DNA from: a virus
Lineage: Duplodnaviria; Heunggongvirae; Uroviricota; Caudoviricetes
IMG/VR virus record: IMGVR_UViG_2939121850_000005
Strand: one strand, 5' to 3'
DNA: 20,990 nucleotides
Below the pieces are notes generated by a model. That model did not search any database, was not told the DNA's origin, and was given only the letters and a program-made list of their open reading frames with translations. This document shows positions 666-19,891 of this stretch, piece after piece; the stretch's first letter is position 1; each line of letters opens with the position of its first letter. A program made the position numbers and the translations under genes.

Positions 666-934
666 TCGTTCCTCCTGACACTGCGTCTATCGAACACATT
701 TTTCGCCAGTGTGGCGTTCAGTAAGATAAAGCCGCTTCGCATTCCATGCTAATATAGGCCAACGCAATTCATATAGCCGTTGATACCTAATGTGATTACA
801 CTAGTAAAATATATTGTTACTTTACTATCGTTTAGGTGCGCTGAATGAATCTGCGCCCTGAATTCTGGTAAAAAACATTATCGTAAATTACCATTTCTTT
901 CAACAGCTTACTAGTAAACAAGAAGTTAGCCTCC

Positions 935-2620
935 GTGAATATAAACGTCGCCGAATTGTTAAATGGGAATTACATTCTGTTATTATTTGTGGTCCTCGCG
1001 CTTGGGCTATGTCTCGGAAAGTTACGACTTGGTTCGATCCAACTGGGTAATTCCATTGGCGTTTTAGTCGTATCGCTGTTATTAGGCCAACAACATTTCA
1101 GCATTAACACCGATGCGCTTAATCTTGGCTTTATGCTGTTTATTTTCTGCGTCGGGGTCGAAGCCGGACCGAACTTTTTTTCCATTTTTTTTCGCGATGG
1201 GAAAAATTACCTAATGTTAGCACTGGTGATGGTTGGCAGTGCGCTGGTGATCGCCTTAGGGTTAGGTAAGCTGTTTGGCTGGGATATTGGCCTGACGGCC
1301 GGTATGTTAGCAGGCTCTATGACGTCGACACCGGTTCTGGTCGGTGCTGGCGATACACTGCGTCATTCCGGCATGGAAAGCAGGCAGCTCTCACTGGCAC
1401 TGGATAATCTGAGCCTCGGGTATGCCTTAACCTATTTAATCGGTCTGGTGAGTTTGATTGTTGGTGCGCGTTACTTGCCGAAATTGCAGCATCAGGACTT
1501 ACAGACCAGCGCCCAGCAAATCGCCCGCGAACGTGGCCTGGACACTGATGCCAACCGTAAGGTTTATTTACCGGTGATCCGCGCCTATCGCGTCGGCCCG
1601 GAACTGGTGGCCTGGACCGACGGCAAAAATCTGCGTGAACTGGGTATTTATCGACAAACCGGCTGCTACATTGAACGTATTCGACGTAACGGGATTCTGG
1701 CAAATCCAGACGGTGATGCCGTGCTACAAATGGGCGATGAAATAGCGTTGGTAGGCTATCCCGACGCCCATGCCCGACTCGATCCCAGCTTCCGTAACGG
1801 TAAAGAAGTTTTCGATCGTGACCTTCTCGACATGCGTATCGTCACTGAAGAAGTGGTCGTTAAAAACCATAACGCTGTAGGTAAACGTCTCGCACAACTG
1901 AAGTTGACCGATCACGGTTGCTTCCTTAACCGCGTCATTCGTAGCCAGATTGAGATGCCGATAGATGACAACGTCGTGCTTAACAAAGGTGACGTTTTAC
2001 AAGTCAGCGGCGATGCCCGCCGCGTAAAAACCATCGCCGATCGCATCGGCTTTATCTCGATTCACAGCCAGGTCACTGACCTGCTGGCATTCTGCGCCTT
2101 CTTTGTTATTGGGCTGATGATCGGGATGATCACCTTCCAGTTCAGCACATTCAGTTTCGGCATGGGGAACGCTGCCGGGTTGTTATTCGCCGGAATTATG
2201 CTGGGCTTTATGCGTGCTAACCACCCGACCTTCGGTTACATTCCGCAAGGTGCATTAAGCATGGTGAAAGAGTTCGGCTTGATGGTGTTTATGGCAGGCG
2301 TTGGTCTGAGCGCCGGTAGCGGTATTAATAACGGCCTGGGCGCGATTGGCGGTCAGATGTTGATTGCCGGATTAATTGTCAGTCTTGTGCCCGTGGTTAT
2401 CTGTTTCTTGTTCGGTGCTTATGTATTGCGAATGAACCGCGCACTGTTGTTCGGCGCAATGATGGGCGCACGCACCTGCGCGCCGGCAATGGAGATCATC
2501 AGTGATACAGCTCGCAGTAACATCCCTGCGCTGGGCTATGCGGGCACCTACGCAATCGCCAACGTCCTGCTGACGCTGGCAGGGACAATCATCGTCATGG
2601 TATGGCCAGGATTAGGATAA
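935..2620 (+). CDS. ybjL: Putative transporter YbjL (aspartate:alanine exchanger family)
   Basis: 561-aa ORF with a GTG start; two membrane domains flanking central soluble repeats; length and synteny match E. coli YbjL. Confidence 0.9.
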
Positions 2621-2732
2621 AACTGAAGTTGCCCTGAAAATGAAATTTTTTTGCACAACCGCAGAACTTTTCCGCAGGGCATCAGTCTTAATTAGTGCCA
2701 CTGCTTTTCTTTGATGTCCCCATTTTGTGGAG

Positions 2733-2775
2733 CCCATCAACCCCGCCATTTCGGTTCAAGGTTGATGGGTTTTTT
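2733..2775 (+). terminator. Intrinsic terminator downstream of ybjL
   Basis: 10-bp stem cccatcaacc / ggttgatggg followed by TTTTTT; probably the last host sequence before the prophage junction. Confidence 0.55.
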
Positions 2776-2855
2776 GTTGCCTGAAATTTAAGCTGTTTAA
2801 AATCATGATGTTAGAAAAACTGTTTTTTAACGATGGCGACAAAATGGCGGCGGCG

Positions 2856-3074
2856 TCAAAGAGAGAGCGCCACCTGTCCTGATTTAATTGGATGCGGCTG
2901 AACCGGATTTGACTCTTTTGGCGTTGCAATCGAACGAACAAAAGTTTCATGGGTAACAAAAGTATGGCTGCAGTTAATGTTCTGGCACTGGTTGTAACGC
3001 TCTTTGGTCAATGAAGATACCTGAAAACTGCTGCGAGTATGGGCGGCACTTCCACACAGTGGGCAAATCATCAT
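2856..3074 (-). CDS. ogr: Ogr/Delta-family zinc-finger late-gene activator
   Basis: 72 aa from the MMICPLCGS start (P2 Ogr is 72 aa); Cys pairs CPLC...CQNINC; GGGGAG about 10 nt upstream; lies at the prophage end as in P2. Confidence 0.8.
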   Translation of the reverse strand: MMICPLCGSAAHTRSSFQVSSLTKERYNQCQNINCSHTFVTHETFVRSIATPKESNPVQPHPIKSGQVALSL

Positions 3075-3255
3075 TTTTCGAGTTCTCCCCATTTTTGCTA
3101 AATTCACAATAATGATACCGCATTATTCCATTTTGCAAACTTAAAAGTTCTCCATTGCGAAGAATCATTCCATTTCGAAATCATCAATCCTCACTTCAAG
3201 CTCCAGACTGGTCGTAAAACCGTTATCCGGGCTGACGGTATGCGTCAGAGTCGTA

Positions 3256-4734
3256 ATGGTCCATTCCGCATCATCTAACGAAGCTGACTTAAACCCTAAC
3301 GTCGCCAACCGCAACAAAGGCCCGCGCCGTCAGCCGGAAAAGAATGTCTTCACCGATGAACAGATTGAGAAGCTGGAAGAAATCTTCCATTCCTCCATGT
3401 TCAACTACCAGCGCCACTGGTGGGAAGCCGGAAAAACCAACCGCATCCGCAACCTGCTGAAGTCACGCCAGATCGGCGCGACCTTTTACTTTGCCCGTGA
3501 AGCCCTGATTGACGCCCTGCTTACCGGACGTAACCAGATTTTCCTTTCCGCCAGTAAGGCACAGGCCCACGTCTTTAAGCAGTACATCATCGACTTCGCC
3601 AAAGAAGTGGATGTGGAACTGAAAGGCGATCCGATGGTGCTTCCTAACGGGGCCACGCTTTACTTCCTCGGCACCAATGCCCGCACGGCCCAGAGTTATC
3701 ACGGCAACCTGTATCTGGATGAATATTTCTGGATACCGAAATTTCAGGAGCTACGCAAAGTGGCTTCCGGTATGGCTATTCACAAGAAATGGCGGCAGAC
3801 CTATTTTTCCACACCATCCAGCCTGACCCACAGTGCTTATCCGTTCTGGTCCGGTGCGCTGTTCAACCGTGGACGCAACAAAGCCGACAAGGTGGACATT
3901 GATCTGTCCCACAGCAATCTGGCCCCCGGCCTGCTGTGCGCTGACGGGCAATACCGCCAGATAGTCACCGTGGAAGATGCGGTGCGCGGCGGCTGTAACC
4001 TGTTCGACCTTGACCAGTTGCGCATGGAATACAGCCCGGACGAATACCAGAACCTGCTGATGTGCGAGTTTGTGGACGATCTCGCGTCCGTGTTCCCGCT
4101 CAGCGAACTACAGGCGTGCATGGTGGACAGTTGGGAAGTCTGGACCGACTTTCATGCACTGGCGCTGCGCCCGTTTGGCTGGCGCGAAGTGTGGATCGGT
4201 TATGACCCGGCAAAAGGTACGCAGAACGGCGACAGCGCCGGATGCGTGGTGGTGGCACCGCCAGCCGTGCCGGGCGGTAAGTTCCGCATTCTTGAGCGTC
4301 ACCAGTGGCGCGGGATGGACTTCCGCGCCCAGGCTGACGCCATCAAAAAACTGACTGAACAGTACAACGTGACATACATCGGTATCGACTCAACCGGCGT
4401 CGGTCACGGGGTTTACGAGAACGTGAAAGCGTTTTTTCCTGCCGTCCGGGAGTTTGTCTACAACCCCAACGTTAAAAATGCCCTGGTACTCAAGGCCTAC
4501 GACATTATCAGTCACCGCCGTCTGGAGTTTGACGCCGGACACACCGACATAGCGCAGTCATTTATGGCAATTCGTCGCGCCACCACCGCCAGCGGCAACC
4601 GCCCGACCTATGAAGCCAGCCGCAGCGAAGAAGCCAGCCATGCCGATCTGGCGTGGGCAACAATGCACGCACTGTTTAACGAGCCGCTGCAGGGCGAGTC
4701 CGCCAATACCAGCAATATTGTGGAGATTTTTTGA
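3256..4734 (+). CDS. P: Terminase ATPase subunit (P2 gpP family), possibly N-terminally truncated
   Basis: 492-aa ORF; Walker-A-like KSRQIGATF and Walker-B-like LYLDEYFW, then a nuclease-like C-terminal half; about 100 aa shorter than P2 gpP as I recall it; stop overlaps the Q start. Confidence 0.75.
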   Translation: MVHSASSNEADLNPNVANRNKGPRRQPEKNVFTDEQIEKLEEIFHSSMFNYQRHWWEAGKTNRIRNLLKSRQIGATFYFAREALIDALLTGRNQIFLSASKAQAHVFKQYIIDFAKEVDVELKGDPMVLPNGATLYFLGTNARTAQSYHGNLYLDEYFWIPKFQELRKVASGMAIHKKWRQTYFSTPSSLTHSAYPFWSGALFNRGRNKADKVDIDLSHSNLAPGLLCADGQYRQIVTVEDAVRGGCNLFDLDQLRMEYSPDEYQNLLMCEFVDDLASVFPLSELQACMVDSWEVWTDFHALALRPFGWREVWIGYDPAKGTQNGDSAGCVVVAPPAVPGGKFRILERHQWRGMDFRAQADAIKKLTEQYNVTYIGIDSTGVGHGVYENVKAFFPAVREFVYNPNVKNALVLKAYDIISHRRLEFDAGHTDIAQSFMAIRRATTASGNRPTYEASRSEEASHADLAWATMHALFNEPLQGESANTSNIVEIF

Positions 4735-5762
4735 TGGGAAAGAGTAAGAAGAACCGCGCTGTGTCGACGAACCAGATTCAGCATAAAAGCCAGACTTCAG
4801 CCGAAGCATTCAGCTTTGGCGATCCCGTTCCTGTTCTGGACCGCCGCGAACTGCTGGACTATGTGGAATGCGTACAGACAGATCGCTGGTATGAGCCGCC
4901 AGTGAGTTTTGACGGACTGGCGCGAACCTTCCGCGCTGCCGTGCATCACAGTTCACCAATTGCGGTGAAATGCAACATTCTGACCAGTACCTACATCCCT
5001 CACCCGCTTCTCAGCCAGCAGGCTTTTTCACGTTTTGTGCAGGACTATCTGGTATTTGGTAACGCTTACCTGGAGAAACGCACGAACCGGTTCGGTGAAG
5101 TTATCGCCCTTGAGCCTGCTCTGGCAAAATACACCCGACGTGGGTTAGACCTGGATACCTACTGGTTTGTGCAATACGGTATGACAACCCAGCCGTATCA
5201 GTTCACGAAAGGCAGCATCTTTCATCTGATGGAACCGGATATCAACCAGGAGATCTACGGCCTGCCCGGTTATCTTTCTGCTATTCCGTCAGCCCTGCTC
5301 AACGAGTCCGCCACGTTGTTCCGCCGTAAGTATTACATTAACGGCAGCCATGCAGGCTTCATCATGTATATGACCGATGCCGCGCAAAACCAAGAGGATG
5401 TGAACAACCTCCGCAACGCGATGAAAAGCGCCAAAGGTCCGGGCAACTTCCGCAACCTGTTTATGTACTCGCCTAACGGCAAAAAGGACGGGCTTCAGAT
5501 TATCCCGTTGTCAGAGGTCGCAGCGAAGGATGAGTTTTTGAATATCAAGAACGTGAGCCGGGACGACATGATGGCGGCACACCGCGTGCCGCCGCAAATG
5601 ATGGGGATAATGCCGAATAATGTTGGGGGTTTTGGGGATGTGGAAAAGGCTAGTAAAGTCTTTGTCCGAAATGAATTAATTCCGTTACAAAAAAGGCTTA
5701 TAGAAATTAATACTTGGCTAAATGAAAAAATCATAGCATTTAATGATTACTCATTAAATTAG
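4734..5762 (+). CDS. Q: Portal protein (P2 gpQ family), 3' end recoded by AT-rich DNA
   Basis: ATG at 4734 overlaps the P stop (TGATG) with GGAGA upstream; 342 aa; base composition falls from about 53% to 27% GC near 5640 within the last 40 codons. Confidence 0.75.
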   Translation: MGKSKKNRAVSTNQIQHKSQTSAEAFSFGDPVPVLDRRELLDYVECVQTDRWYEPPVSFDGLARTFRAAVHHSSPIAVKCNILTSTYIPHPLLSQQAFSRFVQDYLVFGNAYLEKRTNRFGEVIALEPALAKYTRRGLDLDTYWFVQYGMTTQPYQFTKGSIFHLMEPDINQEIYGLPGYLSAIPSALLNESATLFRRKYYINGSHAGFIMYMTDAAQNQEDVNNLRNAMKSAKGPGNFRNLFMYSPNGKKDGLQIIPLSEVAAKDEFLNIKNVSRDDMMAAHRVPPQMMGIMPNNVGGFGDVEKASKVFVRNELIPLQKRLIEINTWLNEKIIAFNDYSLN

Positions 5763-5785
5763 ATAAAAAGGGGTTAATCACCCCT
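5763..5785 (-). terminator. Intrinsic terminator for the KAP NTPase gene
   Basis: Hairpin aggggt-taatc-acccct at 5769..5785, followed on the minus strand by TTTTTAT; lies directly between the convergent Q and KAP genes. Confidence 0.5.
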
Positions 5786-5792
5786 ATAAAAA

Positions 5793-7445
5793 TCACAAAA
5801 ATCGCCTTACACGCATTTTATTAATCGCAGATTCATCTCCAATTCTTATCAAGGCATCCCTTGCCTTTTTCCCTATACGATTCATTCTATCAGAACCATT
5901 ACTAAAATTTCCGAATTTAAGCGCCGTAGCTATTATTGAATCACCACCATCAAGAATGACATTTTTAAATAATTGATAGTAGTCATCTACTGAAGCAGCA
6001 TCCAATATTTCCTCATGTCTATCAGACCAACCATTCTGACCTGATAATTTCTTAAGAACATCATATATTGAACCATCAATATTTATAATCTTAGAATAGG
6101 CTTGAATTTTTGACAACAACTCAGTATCTCTTACGGGATGAACATTCACATAAATAGATTGAACATATTCCTTTAGAGCATCGTTACCATAATTAATAAA
6201 CTGTTCAATCAATTCACTCGCCTTAGCATTCTCTCCGAAATCCCTATATAGTCCGACAACATTATCTAAATCACTTGGAGTCACATATTTCATCCCATCA
6301 ACCACCGCTTGATATAGCTTGTCAACAACCTGATTTTGATTGTCATCAAATGAATTATGAAAGAACTGCCATGCCTCAGATAAGGATCCTCGTTTATTAT
6401 CACGCGTAATCTCCTCATTCCTTAGGCTTATTTGTCTTTGGAAACTGCTCTTATCAAGATAGCCATATCTAACCATATCAATAAGAACCTCATCAAGATC
6501 ATTCGTTTTTCTATATCCATATTTAAGCAAGGTATTAAGCCAGACTTTCTCATGGCCTTCTTCCTTGTCATTATAAGTATATATATTCCTCACTCCCCTA
6601 ATATATTCTAGTGATGGCACATCTCCCTCTGGAGAAAATCCGTAATGGCTCCAACAATACAGAGTTAATGAATGCGCAACTTCATTTGAAATTGTCTCAA
6701 CATCACCTATAATATTTGGTGTTAAGGACACGAAAAAACGTTCTATCTTTTTTAAGATTCGAATATTCTTGATACCTAAAGAAATGGAATATTTACTTAA
6801 CAAGTTATAAACATGAGAATCACCTTTATAGGCTATATCTGCGCATTCTTCTGGTGTTGGATTGTAAGTGATATCTCTATCAATGACCTTTTCTTTATAA
6901 GTAGAATAATCCTCCATACTAGCTGTGCCATTGTTAAGCAATAGAACCACCTTACAATCCTTCTGCTCTTTTAATAGAGATACTAGCCCTAAAACATCTT
7001 TAACATCTAAATTTTTGCCACGCCTTTCTAAGTCATCTATTACTACAATCATTTTAGAAACGGTCAGAAATGACATTGCTTCAAGTGTCGTAGAGAAGTT
7101 TTTTACAACAGGAACTTCTTTTAACAAACCTGCTGCTTTTCGAGAAAATGATTCAAAAAGTCCACTTGCGTTTGTTGTTGCTGTCTCCAAATCAGGTTTA
7201 TTTCCAATATATTCCTTTGTAATTGCATTCTCAAAAATAGAATACTTTAAAGAATCTAGTGAATTTATACCAAAAAGAGAGACATAACTATATCTATTAA
7301 ATGCAACCTTATCTTTATTATCTTTTAGGAACGTATTCCAAGTATAGGTTTTACCAATTCCCCATTCACCCTGTATAGCCATTACTTCTGGTTCTGTAGA
7401 TGAGATAAAATCTGACAACTGTTCTTTGATAAACTCTAAGGACAT
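5793..7445 (-). CDS. KAP-family P-loop NTPase (candidate defence cargo)
   Basis: 551 aa from the ATG at 7445 (GGAGAA upstream; the six-frame track extends it to 7637); Walker A GEWGIGKT (nt 7347..7370) and KAP-type VVIDDLERR motif; about 33% GC. Confidence 0.7.
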   Translation of the reverse strand: MSLEFIKEQLSDFISSTEPEVMAIQGEWGIGKTYTWNTFLKDNKDKVAFNRYSYVSLFGINSLDSLKYSIFENAITKEYIGNKPDLETATTNASGLFESFSRKAAGLLKEVPVVKNFSTTLEAMSFLTVSKMIVVIDDLERRGKNLDVKDVLGLVSLLKEQKDCKVVLLLNNGTASMEDYSTYKEKVIDRDITYNPTPEECADIAYKGDSHVYNLLSKYSISLGIKNIRILKKIERFFVSLTPNIIGDVETISNEVAHSLTLYCWSHYGFSPEGDVPSLEYIRGVRNIYTYNDKEEGHEKVWLNTLLKYGYRKTNDLDEVLIDMVRYGYLDKSSFQRQISLRNEEITRDNKRGSLSEAWQFFHNSFDDNQNQVVDKLYQAVVDGMKYVTPSDLDNVVGLYRDFGENAKASELIEQFINYGNDALKEYVQSIYVNVHPVRDTELLSKIQAYSKIINIDGSIYDVLKKLSGQNGWSDRHEEILDAASVDDYYQLFKNVILDGGDSIIATALKFGNFSNGSDRMNRIGKKARDALIRIGDESAINKMRVRRFL

Positions 7446-7573
7446 GTGTTTTCTCCTAGAAAGATAGCCCCGTATTATAACCCTAGAATTATAAAAGTAA
7501 TGAGCGCGCGCTCGTATCCCCGCCACGCCTGCCCGCTTTATGTAGTGTTTTTCATGCACCTGCATGACATAGG

Positions 7574-7599
7574 CAAAAGCCCGCCAGTTATGACGGGCC
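7574..7599 (-). terminator. Intrinsic terminator downstream of the 883-aa gene
   Basis: Stem gcccg / cgggc with a 10-nt loop at 7579..7598, followed on the minus strand by CTTTTG. Confidence 0.45.
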
Positions 7600-7735
7600 T
7601 CAGCATAAAAGATCCCTAAACGATCATGCGTTTTCATGCAGCATAGTTATGCAGGACTATCTATACATCGACAATCTCAGCTTGACCTCATCAGTCGACA
7701 TCAATCTATATGTCGAGTAACTTGACAGGAACCAT

Positions 7736-10387
7736 TCATTGATCCACAAGAGATAAACTAATCTTTTGCTCAACAGCGTTGAAATCGTTCTCTATACGCA
7801 CCCATAGTACTTTACCTTTGGAATACTCATTCATACGGTTAAAACCTGCAGGCAGTTTTGATTTATGTATTAACCCTGTAATTTTTCCTGTAAAGTTAAC
7901 AAAAACACCATATCTATGATCGCAATTCCGTACAGTACCTTCTAATATATCACCTGACTGATACCTAGCTTCGAACTCTGCCCATTCAGGATCGCGTATC
8001 TTTTCCGCAAATGACTTAACAGCATCAATTGCAGGTTGGATATCAGTTAGCCCGTGATATTCATCTCCAGAAATAAATTCGCCTGAAAAACTTGCTATCG
8101 TTTCACGTTGATTTACAAGAAAATCAACTAACTCCTTAGCATTAGCACTAACCATTTCTTTATTATACTGATTTTGAACTGACCCCATCCTTTCAGAGAC
8201 TCTTCTGGCAATTTGCTCAGTAGGGAAAAGAGTATCTTCTGCTAACGCGGCTAGATAGCTAATATTTGAGAGCATATCCAAATGCACAAACCCAGCCGAG
8301 GATAATCTTAGTAAGTCTTCATCAGTTATTCCAGTCTCTCTAAAATCCTCTGAAACTAAACATTGCCCCTGAAGTAAATAATCGACCTCACGAGTTATAA
8401 CCTTTGGAGAAAAACCAAACTTGACTAATCCGTTTTTTAACGCAAACAAAGGAAAGTATCCTTTAAGTCCAGTTGGACCACTTACCCCAAAATTATTATA
8501 GAACCATTTCAAAATTGCAAACCTAGTAAAATGATTAGCCCTCTCATCATCTTTTTCCGTCGAAAATATATTTTTAAGGTATGAGTTATCGCTATCATAA
8601 AATCGACGATTTAATCGTAATAACACTCTGGTCACAATATGTAAAGGAAGCGCATAGCGTCCTTCACTTTGCCTTATTTTTAAAAACTCACCTTCAGTAA
8701 TATGCCCACTAGTGCAGAACTCCAAGAAAATTTCCAAAGCCCTTCGTATATTTCTTCCTGAAAGACCAACAATCATCCTTCTTATTTGTGCATCATGTAC
8801 AAAAATAGAGTTTGCGATTGATGTTAAATAATATGAACGTTCGTCCTTGCTATATTCAACATTAAAGCCGTTAGGAAGTGAATATGAAAGAGTATTGCTA
8901 GCACTAGTTTTTGTCATTTCTTTAAGAACAAGCTGCACTCTTGAATGAAGAACATAATTAAACAACGGTGGTTCAATACGGAAAACCATATCTTTTAAAG
9001 CGGTGTCAAGAGGAGGACGATCTCTATAATTATCATAAGTTTCTTCTCTCAAGGGAAGAATTATTAGTGATCTAAACTCATTTTGGAGCCATTGAGCAGC
9101 CTGAAACATTAGCAACTGTTCAGACAAAGTTCTTTTATCACAATTATCAAGAACTATTACAACTAATTTACCGCGCTCTGTCCCACAATACCGAGTATAG
9201 GCAAGTGCAGTTTCATGTAAATCTGACTTACATTCCCTAATAATTTTAAACAATTCCTTATTATATTCATCCCCAGAAAGTAATTGCCCCTCCCCCTTAT
9301 TAAACTTATTTATCTCAACAGAATAGAGTTTTTTTAAATTATCCAACAAATCAAAATCAATATCTGGGTAAGCTAACTTACATTGTTGAATTATTTTCCC
9401 TCTAAGCCAATCATAAACTTCCCCTGAAGAAACCGGGGATTCATTCATATTAAAACGTAACCAAAGAGTGGTTTTAATAATATCATTTGGGAGCGCGACT
9501 TCTTTTAAATGATCAATGAAAGTTGTTTTTCCTGAACCAACACTGCCAACAATCAATAAAATTTTATTTTCAAGCGGAGATCGCCCTCTAAATTTTTCAA
9601 TTATTTCTTTGGGATTATCAGTATCTTCAATTAATTTAGAATCACTATTGCTTACTGGTTGAGCAGCCCTGATAATTTTATCTATTGGCTGGGTATAGCG
9701 GTCCCTGCGCTTAGATGAAATATACCCTTCACGAGCGATAAACTGTCGATCATTCAGTGTATTTGGATTAAATATATTTCCATACTCTGATATAAGTGTT
9801 GCACCAAAACTATTATGCCCCACCTCTTCGTTCTGAGCTGCCTTCCCTCCCATCATTCTCCTAGGCTTCCAGAATTTTCTAGGTTTTGATTTAGCTATGA
9901 ATTCCTCAGATAATTTCGAGAGAGCTGTAAACGAAAATTCCTCTAAAAAATTTGCACAATTTTTATCAACAGGTGATATCTCATTTAATCGGTAACTACC
10001 CTGGTTATTATCCCATTCCCCCGCAAGCCACTCATATCCATCAGTAGCTATGATTTTGGTAAGAGGATTCATACCACTCTCATATTTTGCATTCAACTCT
10101 AGCGCATATAATCGTGCTTCCTGAAAAGCGCTATCTAAATCCTCTCCAGGAGTTTTTGCTTCTACTAGTAATACAGGAACACCATTTATAATTACAAGAT
10201 AGTCTGGATAATATATTTTTTTGGTACTACCTTTACCTATCTCTAAGCTTTTAATATTTCTTTTAGTGAGTATATACTCTTTATTTATGCCAAGCCCATC
10301 AACAGATTTCTTAGTCAGAAACGGATAAATTATTTTTTGTTCGATATCACTTTCTGTTTCCTTTACTTTATTTATCTTACTACTCAT
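7736..10387 (-). CDS. Multidomain protein: restriction-endonuclease-like PD-(D/E)xK motif, P-loop NTPase and C-terminal S1/OB domain (candidate defence cargo)
   Basis: 883 aa; YPDYLVIINGVPVLLVEAK (aa 60-78); Walker A GSVGSGKTT (nt 9521..9547); Walker B VVIVLDNCD (aa 409-417); S1-like signature GDILEGTVRNCDHRYGVFVNFTGKITGLIHKSKL...GKVLWVRIEN in the last 75 aa; AAGGA RBS; about 33% GC. Confidence 0.75.
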   Translation of the reverse strand: MSSKINKVKETESDIEQKIIYPFLTKKSVDGLGINKEYILTKRNIKSLEIGKGSTKKIYYPDYLVIINGVPVLLVEAKTPGEDLDSAFQEARLYALELNAKYESGMNPLTKIIATDGYEWLAGEWDNNQGSYRLNEISPVDKNCANFLEEFSFTALSKLSEEFIAKSKPRKFWKPRRMMGGKAAQNEEVGHNSFGATLISEYGNIFNPNTLNDRQFIAREGYISSKRRDRYTQPIDKIIRAAQPVSNSDSKLIEDTDNPKEIIEKFRGRSPLENKILLIVGSVGSGKTTFIDHLKEVALPNDIIKTTLWLRFNMNESPVSSGEVYDWLRGKIIQQCKLAYPDIDFDLLDNLKKLYSVEINKFNKGEGQLLSGDEYNKELFKIIRECKSDLHETALAYTRYCGTERGKLVVIVLDNCDKRTLSEQLLMFQAAQWLQNEFRSLIILPLREETYDNYRDRPPLDTALKDMVFRIEPPLFNYVLHSRVQLVLKEMTKTSASNTLSYSLPNGFNVEYSKDERSYYLTSIANSIFVHDAQIRRMIVGLSGRNIRRALEIFLEFCTSGHITEGEFLKIRQSEGRYALPLHIVTRVLLRLNRRFYDSDNSYLKNIFSTEKDDERANHFTRFAILKWFYNNFGVSGPTGLKGYFPLFALKNGLVKFGFSPKVITREVDYLLQGQCLVSEDFRETGITDEDLLRLSSAGFVHLDMLSNISYLAALAEDTLFPTEQIARRVSERMGSVQNQYNKEMVSANAKELVDFLVNQRETIASFSGEFISGDEYHGLTDIQPAIDAVKSFAEKIRDPEWAEFEARYQSGDILEGTVRNCDHRYGVFVNFTGKITGLIHKSKLPAGFNRMNEYSKGKVLWVRIENDFNAVEQKISLSLVDQ

Positions 10388-10400
10388 ACTCTAGTCCTTA

Positions 10401-10434
10401 TCAAACCAAAAGGCACTTAATTTCTTAAGTGCCT
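10401..10434 (-). terminator. Terminator-like hairpin in the leader of the 883-aa gene
   Basis: Perfect 10-bp stem aggcacttaa / ttaagtgcct with a 4-nt loop, followed on the minus strand by TTTGGTTTG, about 15 nt upstream of the RBS. Confidence 0.4.
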
Positions 10435-10896
10435 ATAATATAGCGTCTGGTAATTTAATAAAAGTCACATGTCAATATCAAAATAAAAAGGCACCTTGAG
10501 ACTAGACCCATAAAAACAAAAAGTCAACATGTTATTTCATACAGTGTGAAAATTAAAGATTTTACAAAACAATAAGTTACAAATCAAACGCGCAATCACA
10601 TGTTGACTGACATCACATATTTAAACTGAAGTAGTAACTTCATTTGCCTTATAGTCTCATGTAACAATTACACTGTTCCTTTAGAGAAGGAACCTTATCT
10701 CTATGAGAACTGTTATATAAACACTTGATGTAAAAAAGCTCAATACCATAGCTACCGCCCATGAGGCTACAGATTGCTGCTTGGGGATATAGAAAGCACA
10801 AATTATAGTAACGATCTGATTCAATAGAGTTCATTTCCATCAAGCTAATCTTCTAGCTTTTATCGATCATTATTTCAATGCACATACAGACTCCCT

Positions 10897-11085
10897 TTAA
10901 CTGGAAACTTCCGTTGACCGGCTGTATTCATGGCTGCGAATTTTCGCCATCAGCTCGTCTGTCAGTTCGGACACCCACTGGATAGCCAGCCGCTTTTCTT
11001 CGTCGCTGCACTCACTAGCCGCTACAAGCTTGATAAAAAAATCAATACGCTGAAGCTTCAATGACTCCAAAAGATAGTCCTGCAT
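10897..11085 (-). CDS. Small hypothetical protein (62 aa) downstream of a LexA box
   Basis: ATG at 11085 preceded by AGGAGG with a 4-nt spacer (MQDYLLESLKLQRIDFF...); identity not recognised. Confidence 0.45.
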   Translation of the reverse strand: MQDYLLESLKLQRIDFFIKLVAASECSDEEKRLAIQWVSELTDELMAKIRSHEYSRSTEVSS

Positions 11086-11243: not shown

Positions 11244-13637
11244 TTAGTACCATTGACGCCATTTGTCATCTTCCTGCAGCCTCTGGTTACGGTAAAAAAT
11301 ACGTAAACCGGCACCGGATGGAATGCTGCCGCCACGCAGAAGCAAATCAATCTCAGATGCACTACCTTCAAACCCCCTGGTTGTCAGTTCTGCCTCAAGC
11401 TGCAGGCGCTGCTGCTCCAAAATACTCTGTATGTATGCTTTTTTCCGCTTCGGTTTTACCAGTCTCAACCTGGCTGTCAGCTCCCGCCGTTCCTTCTGGC
11501 CCATGTTGTGGAGATATTCCTGCAGCTCCTTCTCATCCATGGTTTTAATATCGGGTAAATCACCCCCTGATTTGTTCAGATTTTCAACAGGGGGACAGTT
11601 ATTGCCACGAGTCCAAGGGGCGCAAGCGCCCTGGTCGGCTGCCGCCTCCTGAACGTCAACGGCTTTACGAACCATTTTCCACTTCACTGCATGAGTGCAG
11701 ATCTTGCCCTCTGCAATGGGTGACCAGATGCCATAAATACGAATGCCATGATCGCCATAGGCGGTCGGCTCTTCGTTGATTTCATAAGCGGTTCTGATGA
11801 GGTGATATTTACGGGGAACCAGTACGCCGCCCTGCTTCATGATGTAGGTGGCAAAACAACCAGCATCAGCAGCAGCCAGAATGGCATCAAGACGCGGGTT
11901 ATCCAGTACCGGCGCACCTGCTTTTTTGTCACCCTGTTGCCTTGCCGCCTGACCAGCCAGCAAGCGAAGTTCACGGTAAGCCTGACGCCCCGGAATACCA
12001 AAGAAGCGGAATTGCTGAACACGATGCAGAGACGCCCAGGCATTCACGTATTCAGCGTTATCACGCAGAGATTTACCCGTTTCCTTGCTGATCTCGCCAG
12101 CCAGACCACGACCGTCAATGTTCTTACTGATATATTTCGCGATGTAGCTTGTCGGCGTTCCTTTGCGCGGGTTAATCAACTCAGACTTAAAGCGCGGCCC
12201 AGTGTTATTGCCCAGCTCCTCGCGGTCTTCACGGATGGCAAACTTACGCAGTAATGCAGTGATGGCACGGCGGTCTTTTTTGCGCATGAAACACAACAGG
12301 TGCCAGTGAACTGTGCCATCATGATGCGGCTCAGCCACCCGCACGCCATACCAGCGCAACCCGGCTTTGTGCATCGCCTTACGAAATGCAGCAAACATAC
12401 CGACCAGATAATCGCTGCTTTGTCTTACCGTCGCGTTTGTCCAGGTCGGGTTTGGTCTGCCGTTATTTAGCGTGGAATGGAAACGCGACGGACAGGTGAT
12501 AGTGTAGAAAACGGCGCAGTCACCGCGCATTTCCGCGATAAGCTCCAGACCTTTAACACAGGCCATCATCTCATTGCGGCGATGCGCAGGGTTGCTGCTG
12601 CTGGCGTTTACCACATCCTCCATGTCCAGCGTGTCGCCGTCTTCGTTCACCAGTTCATGAGAACGGAAAAACTCCAGCGACTTACGACGCTGCTCACGTT
12701 TATGCATCACGGCTTCATAGCTGACATAAGGAGATGCTTTTTTGCTGACCAGGCAAACAGCGCGCAACTGCTCTTCCCGCCATTCGCAACGCATCTTCCA
12801 TAATTTCCGATACCACCAGTCGGCGCACAACATACGCGCCAGCGAACCCGGAATGAGTTCATAGGGCACGGGTTTACGGCGGTTTCTTTTCCGACGGAGT
12901 TGCTCAAACGCAGGTGGGATGACATCCAGACGCAGGGTTTCCGCTGCCACCTTTTCCCATGTCTTGCGGATTTCTTCTGGCTTAACGTCATCGGTGGCAT
13001 ACAAATCACCACAAGCTGCATCAAGGCACATACTCATATGCGCAGCTACCAGGGTGGAAAGGCGTTTCACCTGATCCTGACTCATTTCAGGCAGGATCAG
13101 CAGGCCGTCCAGCCCTTCATGGCTTGCCATAAAGCGAAAAGATGCAGATAGCTGACTGTCGCGTACATGCTCCAGTCGTTCCAGACATGGCTTAATCGTC
13201 TCACGTAAATAGCGGGAATAAGCCTTTGGCCTGCCCAGGCTGCTGAAGTATTCAATACGTTGCATCAGCGGCTTGCTGATATGGGAAGGCTGGGCGTTGA
13301 CGTCCGCCAGAATGACCATGTCTGAATTAAAACGCTGCTGCTCATGCGCCAGCTTTGCCCGGCTAATGAGCTTATCCTGCTCCATTTCGCGCTGGACAGG
13401 ATCACGTGATTCATTAAAGAAATAACGCTCCCAGACCTGATCACTCAGTGCCTCGCGGCGCAACTGTTCCTGCTCGTTATCGGCAGCGTACAGAGTGATC
13501 AGGTTTGAAAGCGTAGAAACCGGCGCAACTTCCGCCGGGTCCAGATAAGGGTTAATGGCCTTTTTCGGGCTGTTCCATGAGAATGCTGCGGCAGCCTCGT
13601 TAAAGCCGCAGCAGTTGTTCATATCGGCATGACTCAT
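11244..13637 (-). CDS. A: Replication initiation endonuclease (P2 gpA family, HUH rolling-circle Rep)
   Basis: 797 aa; HUH motif [10 protein letters not shown] and double-tyrosine motif [13 protein letters not shown]; GGAG RBS; ATGA overlap with the upstream dam stop. Confidence 0.8.
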
Positions 13638-16630: not shown

Positions 16631-17566
16631 ATGTCAACACATGAAATCACATTTCGCCATGTGGACGAAAAAAAGAAATCCTTAATCATGCAGAATCGCG
16701 GAGGGCAATCGGTTATAGATCGGATACTGAAAGCCTATGGTTTTTCTTCCCGACAAGCATTCTGTAATCACCTAGGTATATCGCAAAGTACAATGGCGAA
16801 CAGGTATGCCCGTGACACTTTCCCTGCTGATTGGGTTGTTATCTGTAGCATGGAGACTGGAGTGCCGGTCGAGTGGTTGGCATTTGGCACTGATACCGAG
16901 AAGGGAAGCATTACAAATAATGCAGAAAAAAGTCACAACAATTGTGACAGCAAGCATCAACATCTCAATAGAGAACAAGACATCCAAAATGAGAACTCTT
17001 TTACTATTAACCAAGGTGGAAAAGCAGCAATAGAGCGAATCGTTTTGGCTTATGGATTTAAGACAAGACAAGCTTTAGCTGATCATATTGGTGTATCAAA
17101 AAGTACATTAGCCAATCGTTACATGAGAGATACCTTTCCTGCTGACTGGATTATTCAATGCTCACTGGAAACCGGTGCTTCATTAACATGGCTAACCACT
17201 GGTAACGGGGCAATGTTTGAAAAGCCTCGAAACGATACTATCACTATCCCATATCATAAAATAATTGATGGATCTCTTGCTCAAGAAACCTTCTTGACTT
17301 TTGACTCTAAGTTGTTAGAAGGAACCTTTCTGCAACCTTTAGCAGTATTCATTGATGAGGAAATATATATTGTAGAATCAAAATTTAATGAAGTTACTGA
17401 TGGCAAGTGGCTTGTGAATATTGAAGGGAAAATAAGTATCAAAGATTTGACTCGCATACCCGTTGGTATGGTTAAAGTTGTAGGCACTAACGCAAGTTTT
17501 GAATGCTTACTTACTGACATTATCGTTTTGGCAAAATGTAAAAGAGTTTTTACTAAAAATGTATAA
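16631..17566 (+). CDS. CI-like repressor with tandemly duplicated HTH domain (186 CI-type)
   Basis: 311 aa; two about 64-aa repeats (aa 24-87 and 129-192, about 60% identical) each with an HTH-like core (ILKAYGFSSRQAFCNHLGISQSTMANRY / IVLAYGFKTRQALADHIGVSKSTLANRY); about 37% GC; start codon uncertain (no clear SD). Confidence 0.6.
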   Translation: MSTHEITFRHVDEKKKSLIMQNRGGQSVIDRILKAYGFSSRQAFCNHLGISQSTMANRYARDTFPADWVVICSMETGVPVEWLAFGTDTEKGSITNNAEKSHNNCDSKHQHLNREQDIQNENSFTINQGGKAAIERIVLAYGFKTRQALADHIGVSKSTLANRYMRDTFPADWIIQCSLETGASLTWLTTGNGAMFEKPRNDTITIPYHKIIDGSLAQETFLTFDSKLLEGTFLQPLAVFIDEEIYIVESKFNEVTDGKWLVNIEGKISIKDLTRIPVGMVKVVGTNASFECLLTDIIVLAKCKRVFTKNV

Positions 17567-17577
17567 AGAGAAACATC

Positions 17578-18522
17578 ATGACTGAACCAACCAATAAAGA
17601 TAGCGAAATAAAAAAACACCTATTAGAATTTCTTGATTCACAGTCTGAAAATATAGCAAAACACTTCTACTCTCATATAAAAGACTTAATAGAAGCAGGA
17701 GAGCTTTCTGAAGCTCATAATAACCTAGCGCTAATTGAAAAATACATAACTAGGCCACCGATGGATGAAGAACCCAATATAAATGAAAATAAAGCCAATA
17801 AAAGAAAAAATGTAAAATCACTTGAACCTAATAATTATGTAGAACATATAATACAATTAGAAGAACGAAACAGCATATTAACTCTACAGTTAGAGCATTA
17901 TACTCAGGATCTTAATAGAAAAAACGCAATAATCGAAAACAACGTAAAACAAATTAATTCATTGATTAGTGAAAATAAGGAACTCCGTAGCCAAGTACAG
18001 CAACAAAGAATCGATGATAAAATCCCCACCTATGTTAACGATGTTAAATCAGATCTTGGTAGTGATGACAAACATTTTATATTGATGTCTATTATCTGGT
18101 CTATTGCAGGGGTATTTTTTGGCTTCCTTGCAGTAGTATCTGCTTTTTTTACATTATACATGAACTTAGATTTAAAAAATCTCACTAACCTTCAGTTAAT
18201 ATATATCTTCACGCGAGGATTAGTTGGAATCGCCATTCTTTCATGGCTATCATATATCTGCCTTAGTAACTCAAAAAAGTACACACATGAATCGATCAGG
18301 CGAAAAGATCGTCGACATGCTTTGATGTTTGGTCAAGTTTTTTTGCAGATATACGGTTCTACAGCAACTAAAGAGGATGCAATAGAAGTCTTTAAGGATT
18401 GGAATATTTCAGGTGACTCTGCATTTTCAGGTCAGACAGAGCAACCACCGAGTTTTGCGTCATTTTTGAATACAATCAAAGACAAAGTTAAAGTAACTGG
18501 AAGTGATAAAGAAACAGATTAA
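17578..18522 (+). CDS. Coiled-coil / two-TM membrane protein of unknown function (candidate exclusion or abortive-infection moron)
   Basis: 314 aa starting 11 nt after the CI-like stop; charged coiled-coil N-terminal half and two hydrophobic helices (FILMSIIWSIAGVFFGFLAVVSAFF, GLVGIAILSWLSYICL); strongly AT-rich. Confidence 0.6.
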   Translation: MTEPTNKDSEIKKHLLEFLDSQSENIAKHFYSHIKDLIEAGELSEAHNNLALIEKYITRPPMDEEPNINENKANKRKNVKSLEPNNYVEHIIQLEERNSILTLQLEHYTQDLNRKNAIIENNVKQINSLISENKELRSQVQQQRIDDKIPTYVNDVKSDLGSDDKHFILMSIIWSIAGVFFGFLAVVSAFFTLYMNLDLKNLTNLQLIYIFTRGLVGIAILSWLSYICLSNSKKYTHESIRRKDRRHALMFGQVFLQIYGSTATKEDAIEVFKDWNISGDSAFSGQTEQPPSFASFLNTIKDKVKVTGSDKETD

Positions 18523-18575: not shown

Positions 18576-19891
18576 GGGTCTTCCCTTGTTGTGGTGGCTG
18601 AAGGCATGATAATGGTGTATTTAATCGCCAGAGGTCACCGCCATGGACGAAAAGTCCCTCTACGCTCATATTCTCAACCTGTCCGATCCGTGGCAGGTAA
18701 AGTCCCTTTCTCTCGATGAAAATGCCGGTTCTGTTACTGTCACTATTGAGATCGCTGAAAACACCCGGCTAGCCTGTCCGACCTGCGGTAAATCCTGTTC
18801 TGTTCACGATCACCGTCATCGTAAATGGCGCCATCTTGATACCTGCCAGTTCACCACTATTGTTGAAGCCGATGTTCCACGAATTATGTGTCCGGAGCAT
18901 GGCTGCCTGACGTTGCCTGTTCCGTGGGCTGGCCCCGGAAGCCGGTATACGTTGCTATTCGAATCGTTCGTTCTCTCATGGCTGAAAATCAGCACCGTTG
19001 ATGCTGTCAGGAAGCAACTTAAGCTCAGTTGGAATGCGGTTGACGGCATTATGACCCGGGCAGTTAAGCGAGGTCTTGCCCGGATAAAAAAGCCATTATC
19101 CGCCCGTCATATGAATGTGGATGAGGTCGCCTTTAAAAAAGGACATCGTTACATAACGGTGATCTCCGATCGCGATGGTCGGGCGCTGGCCTTAACGGAT
19201 GATCGCGGCACAGAGAGTCTTGCCGGCTATCTTCGCACGCTCACTGATGGGCAGTTGCTGGCTATCAAAACGCTCTCAATGGACATGAACGCGGGCTATA
19301 TAAGAGCAGCGCGTATCTACTTACCCAGTGCGGTTGAGAAAATCGCCTTTGACCGCTTCCATGTGGCGAAGCAACTGGGCGAGGTAGTTGATAAAACCCG
19401 TCAGAATGAACATCCGCACCTCCCTGTTGAAAGCCGACACCAGGCAAAAGGAACCCGCTTCCTGTGGCAGTACAGCGATAAGTGGATGACCGAATCCCGG
19501 CAGGAAAAGCTGATGTGGCTGCGTGCACAGATGAAGCTGACGAGCCAGTGCTGGGCGCTGAAAGAGCTGGCAAAGGATATCTGGAACAGGCCATGGAGCG
19601 AGGAAAGACGGAGTGACTGGCAGAGATGGTTGGCGCTGGCGGCTAACAGTGACGTTCCCATGATGAAAAATGCCGCGAAAACGATAGGAAAAAGGCTGTA
19701 CGGGATCCTGAATGCGATGCGACACAGTGTCTCAAACGGAAATGCGGAGGCACTTAACAGCAAGATCAGGCTGCTGAGGATAAAAGCCAGGGGATACCGA
19801 AACCGGGAGCGCTTTAAACTGGGGGTGATGTTCCACTACGGAAAGCTGAATATGGCGTTCTGAGCCTTCCCACCATGATCGGGGAAGACCC
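18576..19891 (+). mobile_element. ISL3-family insertion sequence (1316 bp)
   Basis: Imperfect terminal inverted repeats beginning GGGTCTTCCC at both ends (left 18576..18604; right 19864..19891, reverse complement); one transposase ORF; flanked by an 8-bp direct repeat. Confidence 0.75.
18643..19863 (+). CDS. ISL3-family transposase
   Basis: 406 aa; N-terminal Cys/His zinc-finger (CPTCGKSC...CPEHGC), DDE-type core, C-terminal SNGNAEALNSKIRLLRIKARGYRNRERF typical of ISL3 transposases; GAGGT RBS. Confidence 0.75.
   Translation: MDEKSLYAHILNLSDPWQVKSLSLDENAGSVTVTIEIAENTRLACPTCGKSCSVHDHRHRKWRHLDTCQFTTIVEADVPRIMCPEHGCLTLPVPWAGPGSRYTLLFESFVLSWLKISTVDAVRKQLKLSWNAVDGIMTRAVKRGLARIKKPLSARHMNVDEVAFKKGHRYITVISDRDGRALALTDDRGTESLAGYLRTLTDGQLLAIKTLSMDMNAGYIRAARIYLPSAVEKIAFDRFHVAKQLGEVVDKTRQNEHPHLPVESRHQAKGTRFLWQYSDKWMTESRQEKLMWLRAQMKLTSQCWALKELAKDIWNRPWSEERRSDWQRWLALAANSDVPMMKNAAKTIGKRLYGILNAMRHSVSNGNAEALNSKIRLLRIKARGYRNRERFKLGVMFHYGKLNMAF

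Follow-up and report, generated by a model that had tools for sequence, protein, structure and literature searches.

A KAP-like NTPase gene between cos and the portal gene of a defective 186/P2-like prophage: a single-gene candidate for anti-phage defense

Why does a defective prophage keep an intact nucleoside triphosphatase (NTPase) gene next to its cohesive-end site (cos), does that gene depend on its neighbors, and what could it do for the host? The locus that raises these questions lies in a virus record of 20,990 nucleotides (IMG/VR record IMGVR_UViG_2939121850_000005; Duplodnaviria; Heunggongvirae; Uroviricota; Caudoviricetes). This whole stretch, hereafter the window, covers the ybjL–rcdA region of the E. 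coli chromosome and holds a defective 186/P2-like prophage, in which positions 5793–7445 of the minus strand encode a protein of 550 amino acids (aa). The reading that we favor, with a probability of roughly 60%, is that of a self-contained cargo module of one gene, placed between cos and portal, whose soluble KAP-like NTPase most likely shields the lysogen from other phages; we regard the gene as probably an anti-phage gene.

Two start codons come into question for this gene. The list of open reading frames (ORFs) of the window contains a 614-aa ORF (5793–7637), and RefSeq annotates the same long form in this lineage (WP_023147874.1). An earlier interpretation of the locus, made from the letters and the ORF list alone (the sequence-only reading), had considered this ORF over-extended and the ATG at 7445, with its GGAGAA, the likely start. 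The elements of the gene are as follows.

5793–7445, minus strand: coding sequence of the KAP-like P-loop NTPase, 550 aa, stop codon TGA at 5795–5793 (translation, Pfam, PADLOC and PHROG)
7347–7370, minus strand: Walker A motif GEWGIGKT, residues 26–33, key residues invariant in 30 homologs
7020–7046, minus strand: Walker B motif VVIDDLERR, residues 134–142, key residues invariant in 30 homologs
5796–6575, minus strand: C-terminal all-helical domain, residues 291–550, without a match among solved structures
7452–7457, minus strand: ribosome-binding site GGAGAA, 6 nt 5' of the ATG, read from the sequence and kept in the 77–80% alleles
7446–7637, minus strand: spurious 5' extension of the 614-aa ORF (WP_023147874.1), judged by homolog alignment, codon composition and overlap with a hairpin and cos

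Motifs and start were assessed on an alignment of 30 homologs, with identity down to 41%. All 30 begin at the Met encoded at 7445, as MS(L/V/I). The G+C content at third codon positions (GC3) is 0.47 in the 64 codons of the extension (7446–7637) versus 0.26 within the NTPase gene, the extension runs over a strong terminator hairpin and the phage cos core, and RefSeq itself gives 550 aa for the 99.7%, 99.2% and 80% alleles of three other genomes. On these grounds the gene starts at ATG 7445, as the sequence-only reading had proposed. That the true product should be the 614-aa RefSeq protein is extremely improbable: an in-frame ATG is indeed open at 7637 and the long form is annotated in this lineage, but the extension is found in none of the 30 homologs and a good ribosome-binding site stands ahead of 7445. 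The fused 614-aa ORF was rejected on the homolog alignment, and the RefSeq model WP_023147874.1 starts 64 codons too early and crosses cos. Both motifs named earlier are present where they had been placed; G26, W28, G29, G31, K32 and T33 of Walker A and I136, D137, D138, E140 and R141 of Walker B show no variation across the alignment.

The assignment to the KAP family, for which Pfam had been suggested as the check, was borne out by a match to KAP_NTPase (PF07693) of 30.2 bits (E 3.6e-7), above the Pfam gathering cut-off of 20 bits, but weak and partial (residues 8–193, positions 6–224 of the 293 in the profile), PifA of plasmid F reaching 148.5 bits over the full profile. ATPase_2 and AAA_16 gave weaker matches below threshold. 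The protein also shows the KAP motif pattern, Walker A GxxGxGK[ST] and Walker B hhhhDD followed by the conserved acidic/Arg pair, and the two motifs align with GAWGSGKT and IVVMDDLDR of PifA. With the family, whose type members are Kidins220/ARMS and PifA, it thus shares GxWGxGKT and hhhhDDLxR, and it resembles the family in the helical C-terminal extension that follows the NTPase. Transmembrane helices inserted in the NTPase domain are reportedly typical of many KAP members; no such insert was found here, the highest 19-residue Kyte–Doolittle mean being 1.35. Because profile and motifs agree with the family while the transmembrane insert is absent and, compared pairwise, only the two Walker segments resemble PifA, the safest label for the protein is 'KAP-like'.

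Outside Pfam, the full length of the protein is matched by PHROG 4740 (E 1e-124), annotated as function unknown; NCBIfam has no family for it, and no solved structure related by sequence was found (best E 0.11). A word-indexed search returned more than 1000 full-length homologs of 548–562 aa. When the C-terminal 260 residues served as query, at least 1233 clusters at 50% identity were obtained, and in the best 150 of the 1233 matches the domain occupies about residues 300–555 of 550–600-aa proteins, or lies in fragments, always after this NTPase and never in another architecture. Homologs at 44–46% are found on an integrative island of Pseudomonas and at one locus each in Shewanella and Vibrio, the latter chromosomal, and no conserved neighbor or partner gene was seen in these three contexts. 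Full-length relatives at 25–39% lie on Enterobacteriaceae plasmids of about 110 kb and in a 109-kb Escherichia phage record, as well as on Burkholderia phages and on plasmids of Rhizobium, Agrobacterium and Nostoc. Compared with the 80% alleles, the ratio of nonsynonymous to synonymous substitution rates (dN/dS) is about 0.13, and the family is under purifying selection.

An AlphaFold2 model of the NTPase has a mean predicted local distance difference test (pLDDT) score of 81.8. The N-terminal part takes an ORC/Cdc6-like AAA+ fold in this model and displays the hallmarks of AAA+/STAND-like folds, namely a P-loop alpha/beta core, a helical lid, a polar sensor-1 residue and a conserved lid Arg. 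Residues 85–127, at the position of the KAP transmembrane insert, are modeled as a soluble helical insert with pLDDT below 50. Structurally, the model comes closest to replication initiators and to DNA-binding AAA+ proteins such as TnsC and MuB. Resemblance to the ORC/Cdc6 initiator-clade AAA+ proteins and to the STAND NTPases (Apaf-1, NLRs) goes along with an identity of 10–16% and a whole-protein TM-score of about 0.3, and differs in that the NTPase lacks the winged-helix or repeat sensor domain that follows in those proteins.

The position of the gene within the prophage is informative in its own right. The prophage genes are ogr, a D fragment fused to the terminase gene, the portal gene (4731–5762), the NTPase gene, an 883-aa gene, a small hypothetical gene, gpA (11244–13637), Dam, a CII/Fil/CI block, a 314-aa low-GC gene, ISKox3 and the integrase gene. 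At about 2850–3260 the late-control D fragment adjoins a terminase gene without its 5' end, and the whole structural gene block has therefore been deleted; D and P are pseudogenes, and ISKox3 (18643–19863), of the ISL3 family, is inserted beside the integrase gene. Positions 5500–11000 form an island of 34% GC in surroundings of about 50% GC, and two elements in it define the slot of the NTPase gene.

5763–7502, minus strand: whole cargo cassette, about 1.74 kb, about 34% GC, from the portal stop codon to the cos core (composition and leader alignment)
7503–7529, minus strand: cos core, the 19-nt cohesive-end sequence GGCGTGGCGGGGATACGAG (7529–7511) followed by CGCGCGCT, aligning to cosL of 186/P2

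The cos core can be aligned to the 19-nt cohesive ends annotated in phage 186 (GGCGTGGCGGGGAAAGCAT) and P2, and its 27 nt, preceded by a hairpin and U-run, recur without change in five other prophages of Escherichia and Salmonella. No usable account of the sequence requirements of P2 cos was found in the literature. Similarity between cassettes stops directly after GCGCGCT of the cos core, which marks the right-hand boundary of the cassette. The NTPase gene is on the cos-portal side and the 883-aa gene on the gpA side; with cos between them, the two would stand at opposite ends of a linear virion genome, and 85 bp would separate the left cohesive end from the NTPase start codon.

This location, between gene A and the portal gene Q and beside cos, is that of cargo in the gpA–gpQ hotspot of P2-like phages (old and tin in P2), a context absent from the sequence-only reading. 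P2 and 186 themselves carry cargo only on the gpA side of cos and encode nothing between cos and portal, whereas here the NTPase occupies the cos-portal sub-slot. The same slot is used in Salmonella and E. coli prophages, and in the Klebsiella P2-like phage Kp4845-2 it holds Lamassu (LmuA of 359 aa and LmuB of 557 aa, at 707–3434, with the cos core at 3527–3539; matches E 1e-142 and 2e-253), so that it is a site for cargo in general, separate from the slot on the gpA side. The P2 hotspot is made of two independent cargo slots separated by cos.

In the sequence-only reading the NTPase gene was an independent transcription unit beside the 883-aa gene, with a promoter and a terminator of its own. 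The signals that bear on this are listed below.

5764–5785, minus strand: intrinsic terminator of the NTPase gene, AGGGGT-GATTA-ACCCCT then TTTTT (hairpin 5785–5769 plus T-run)
7474–7479, minus strand: candidate -10 hexamer TATAAT, the conserved one; best -35 ATTACT at 16-nt spacing, 3/6
7488–7493, minus strand: second TATAAT, where diverged alleles have GATAGT
7575–7598, minus strand: conserved hairpin with U-run ahead of cos, placed like t95b of phage 186

The terminator stands as described: its hairpin begins 7 nt past the stop codon, with a folding energy of -10.8 kcal/mol (z -2.3), and it serves the NTPase gene and not the portal gene, because the plus strand has no U-run after the hairpin. 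At the other end, the hairpin at 7598–7579 between the 883-aa gene and the NTPase gene is stronger (-20.3 kcal/mol, z -4.2) and is kept in six prophages, where changes in the stem still pair, as judged by eye; this hairpin ends transcription arriving from the side of the 883-aa gene. With hairpin and cos upstream, an NTPase transcript must either start in the 57-nt interval from cos to the ATG or come from read-through at the upstream terminator.

The claim of an own promoter stood in part. A perfect TATAAT does lie in this interval, at 7479–7474 and 16 nt ahead of the ribosome-binding site, and the conserved -10 region GGGTTATAATA is identical in the 99.7, 99.2, 80 and 77% alleles, while the upstream TATAAT varies; the ribosome-binding site and a block around the -35 position are also kept in alleles about 20% diverged in DNA. 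A consensus promoter scan lent it no support: the -35 is weak (best 3/6), for which reason neither TATAAT was listed. The hexamer is also as frequent in the AT-rich island as chance predicts (7 on this strand, about 6 expected). Given the conservation of the -10 and its position, we infer promoter activity here as plausible and positionally required.

Does the NTPase then act alone? The neighbor across cos, at 7736–10387 on the minus strand, encodes an 883-aa protein with an HsdR_N-type nuclease-like N-terminus, a P-loop ATPase and a C-terminal S1 RNA-binding domain, and a two-gene system in which the NTPase works together with this adjacent protein comes readily to mind: the genes are neighbors on the same strand in one low-GC island, Rousset et al. 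list one joint arrangement, and the NTPase is present in every one of the 109 E. coli genomes that carry the 883-aa gene. Complete E. coli genomes with an NTPase allele at 99% or more number 115, however, and the co-occurrence stems from one near-identical locus (99–100%). Across lineages the company of the NTPase changes, as seen in other prophages.

E. coli UTME-8, intact prophage: allele at 99.7%; across cos, DinI and a small ORF only
E. coli MB06173: allele at 99.2%; across cos, a pair of 72 aa and 280 aa
E. coli 504237: allele at 80%; across cos, a 203-aa protein
E. coli contig L009: allele at 77%; across cos, a pair of 66 aa and 260 aa
Salmonella: allele at 42%; across cos, a pair of 72 aa and 280 aa
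E. coli AF5: 554-aa homolog, DNA match 69% over 190 nt; across cos, a HEPN protein

An allele at 99.7% thus has only DinI for company, other alleles have four other neighbors, and conversely a 90% homolog of the 883-aa protein is found in Enterobacter P2-like prophages that have no NTPase gene before the portal; a conserved co-occurrence of the two genes across lineages was not found. With a strong conserved terminator between the genes, and with cos placing them at the two ends of the linear phage genome, joint action is very unlikely, and it was rejected on the alleles with other neighbors and the 883-aa homolog without the NTPase. Because each gene is found without the other in other prophages, the two are separate modules, and the independence claimed by the sequence-only reading is upheld by the strong hairpin, the cos core and the varying neighbors.

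The 883-aa protein deserves mention for itself. It matches PHROG 14719 and no specific PADLOC family, has more than 700 full-length homologs in Proteobacteria and Acidobacteria, and occurs as a homolog alone in the gpA-side slot of the Enterobacter P2-like prophages; it looks like an uncharacterized single-gene defense candidate in its own right.

The case for a defense function of the NTPase is drawn from its relatives and from its slot. Its best PADLOC match is PDC-S49 (E 6.9e-28), aligned over residues 6–428 to model positions 9–440 of 624, with the C-terminal 120 residues of the NTPase outside the alignment; the 554-aa allele matches the same model (E 1e-29). Like the NTPase, PDC-S49 is a single-gene candidate, and from this alignment the NTPase appears to be a relative of PDC-S49, not clearly a member of the same family. 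No mention of PDC-S49 was found in the literature; the PADLOC PDCs are 145 predicted candidates that turned up inside BREX, DISARM and type I restriction-modification (RM) systems. The gpA–gpQ region of P2-like phages is a published defense hotspot (Rousset et al. 2022), and Table S5 of that study already lists this exact gene trio with the same RefSeq protein ids.

Several KAP-type proteins provide precedents. PifA of plasmid F is a phage-exclusion protein; the defense conferred by EF_KAP of Enterococcus is Walker-B-dependent and non-abortive, and three metagenomic KAP fusions are further precedents (PMC12632615); QatA of qatABCD multimerizes and binds DNA but is dispensable for defense; and 'Reve', a single-gene KAP/ATPase system of P4 satellites, strongly protects E. 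coli against Drexlerviridae (10.64898/2026.02.27.708500). EF_KAP, its metagenomic relatives, Reve and QatA resemble our protein in that a KAP-type NTPase is followed in one protein by an uncharacterized C-terminal region. EF_KAP differs by two N-terminal transmembrane helices and QatA by being part of a four-gene operon, whereas Reve, compared by description only, likewise comes from the P2/P4 hotspot world and has an ORC ATPase module as top Foldseek match.

The same structural matches can be read in another way. The gene might be a non-defense accessory, an ORC/Cdc6-like DNA-binding ATPase for maintenance, replication control or partition, or a counter-defense factor; the likeness to replication initiators, TnsC and MuB, the many homologs on plasmids, including those of about 110 kb in Enterobacteriaceae, the many P2 hotspot cargos that are not defense genes and the lack of a recognizable effector domain all fit such a role. 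We consider it unlikely, though clearly the first alternative to keep in mind, as homologs also sit at chromosomal spots without an element replication context, relatives under PDC-S49 are embedded in BREX, DISARM and RM systems, a related phage has Lamassu in the same slot, and the gene is kept in a prophage without structural genes.

Could the gene simply be a silent remnant in a decaying prophage of this lineage? The D and P pseudogenes, the deleted structural genes and the inserted ISKox3 speak for decay, as does an IS3-family element within the matched hotspot region of two carrier genomes (IS2 in one). ORF, ribosome-binding site, -10 hexamer and terminator are nevertheless intact and identical in more than 100 genomes, and the family is under purifying selection, which makes silence distinctly improbable.

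Against the protective cargo gene that we favor weigh several points. The helical C-terminal 260 residues match no solved structure, the protein has no recognizable effector domain, and, as said, the consensus scan passed over both candidate -10 hexamers. The systems tested by Rousset et al. (Table S2) include no KAP entry, so the NTPase was listed and not tested there; about one quarter of P2-like phages carry a non-defense system (plasmid partitioning) in the hotspot; and no experiment on the NTPase or a close homolog was found in the literature. The host prophage is defective and the locus is at 99–100% identity among carriers (a 5.9-kb region shared at this level by 109 of 5426 complete E. 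coli genomes), so that retention in this set says little about selection.

On the reading that we favor, the gene is probably transcribed from its own promoter in the leader of about 57 bp after cos; it ends at its own terminator and needs neither the 883-aa gene nor another conserved partner. The product is a soluble NTPase that combines a divergent KAP-type P-loop, in an AAA+ core with lid, with a family-specific helical C-terminal domain. If the gene is protective, as we infer from its relatives and its slot, this domain, as sensor or effector, may recognize a DNA structure or some component of the phage, while the Walker A/B site, by binding and hydrolyzing NTP, could drive an oligomeric or DNA-bound state that blocks replication of the invader. 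Such a mechanism would parallel the Walker-B-dependent, non-abortive defense of other KAP-domain proteins. A bolder version, which we put forward only as speculation and with little confidence, is a new single-protein immune sensor, a soluble ORC/Cdc6-like KAP NTPase with a hitherto unseen helical domain that detects and neutralizes phage without a classical effector; its place at the left end could link it to cos, for example to incoming cos-ended or P4-type DNA.

As an object the NTPase is not new, being present in RefSeq, in a PHROG, as a PADLOC-like candidate and in a supplementary table of 2022; what is added here is the corrected start, the hotspot split by cos, the stand-alone module in a slot shared with Lamassu, and the fold assignment. 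Current understanding is not overturned by these findings. Should the NTPase protect against phages, a widespread family, present on prophages, plasmids and chromosomal islands, would join the small set of KAP-type single-protein defenses, and it would do so with a soluble member that is easily studied.

Some further observations concern the prophages themselves. Those of UTME-8 (L015) and MB06173 (L016), which carry the 99% alleles (6001–7653), have an intact head/packaging block in the fetched stretch. In the window, the CI repressor ORF (16631–17566, plus strand) gives 292–311 aa and several separate repressor-family matches; CI of related prophages has 191–210 aa, and the longer form here may be a duplication or fusion. 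The 314-aa gene (17578–18522, plus strand; about 30–35% GC) lies between the CI gene and ISKox3/integrase, an int–cI position that has been described as a hotspot of P2-like phages; it is matched end to end by PHROG 2628, annotated as function unknown, and by no NCBIfam family. On contig L009, the int–cI slot holds a different KAP_NTPase protein, of 443 aa.

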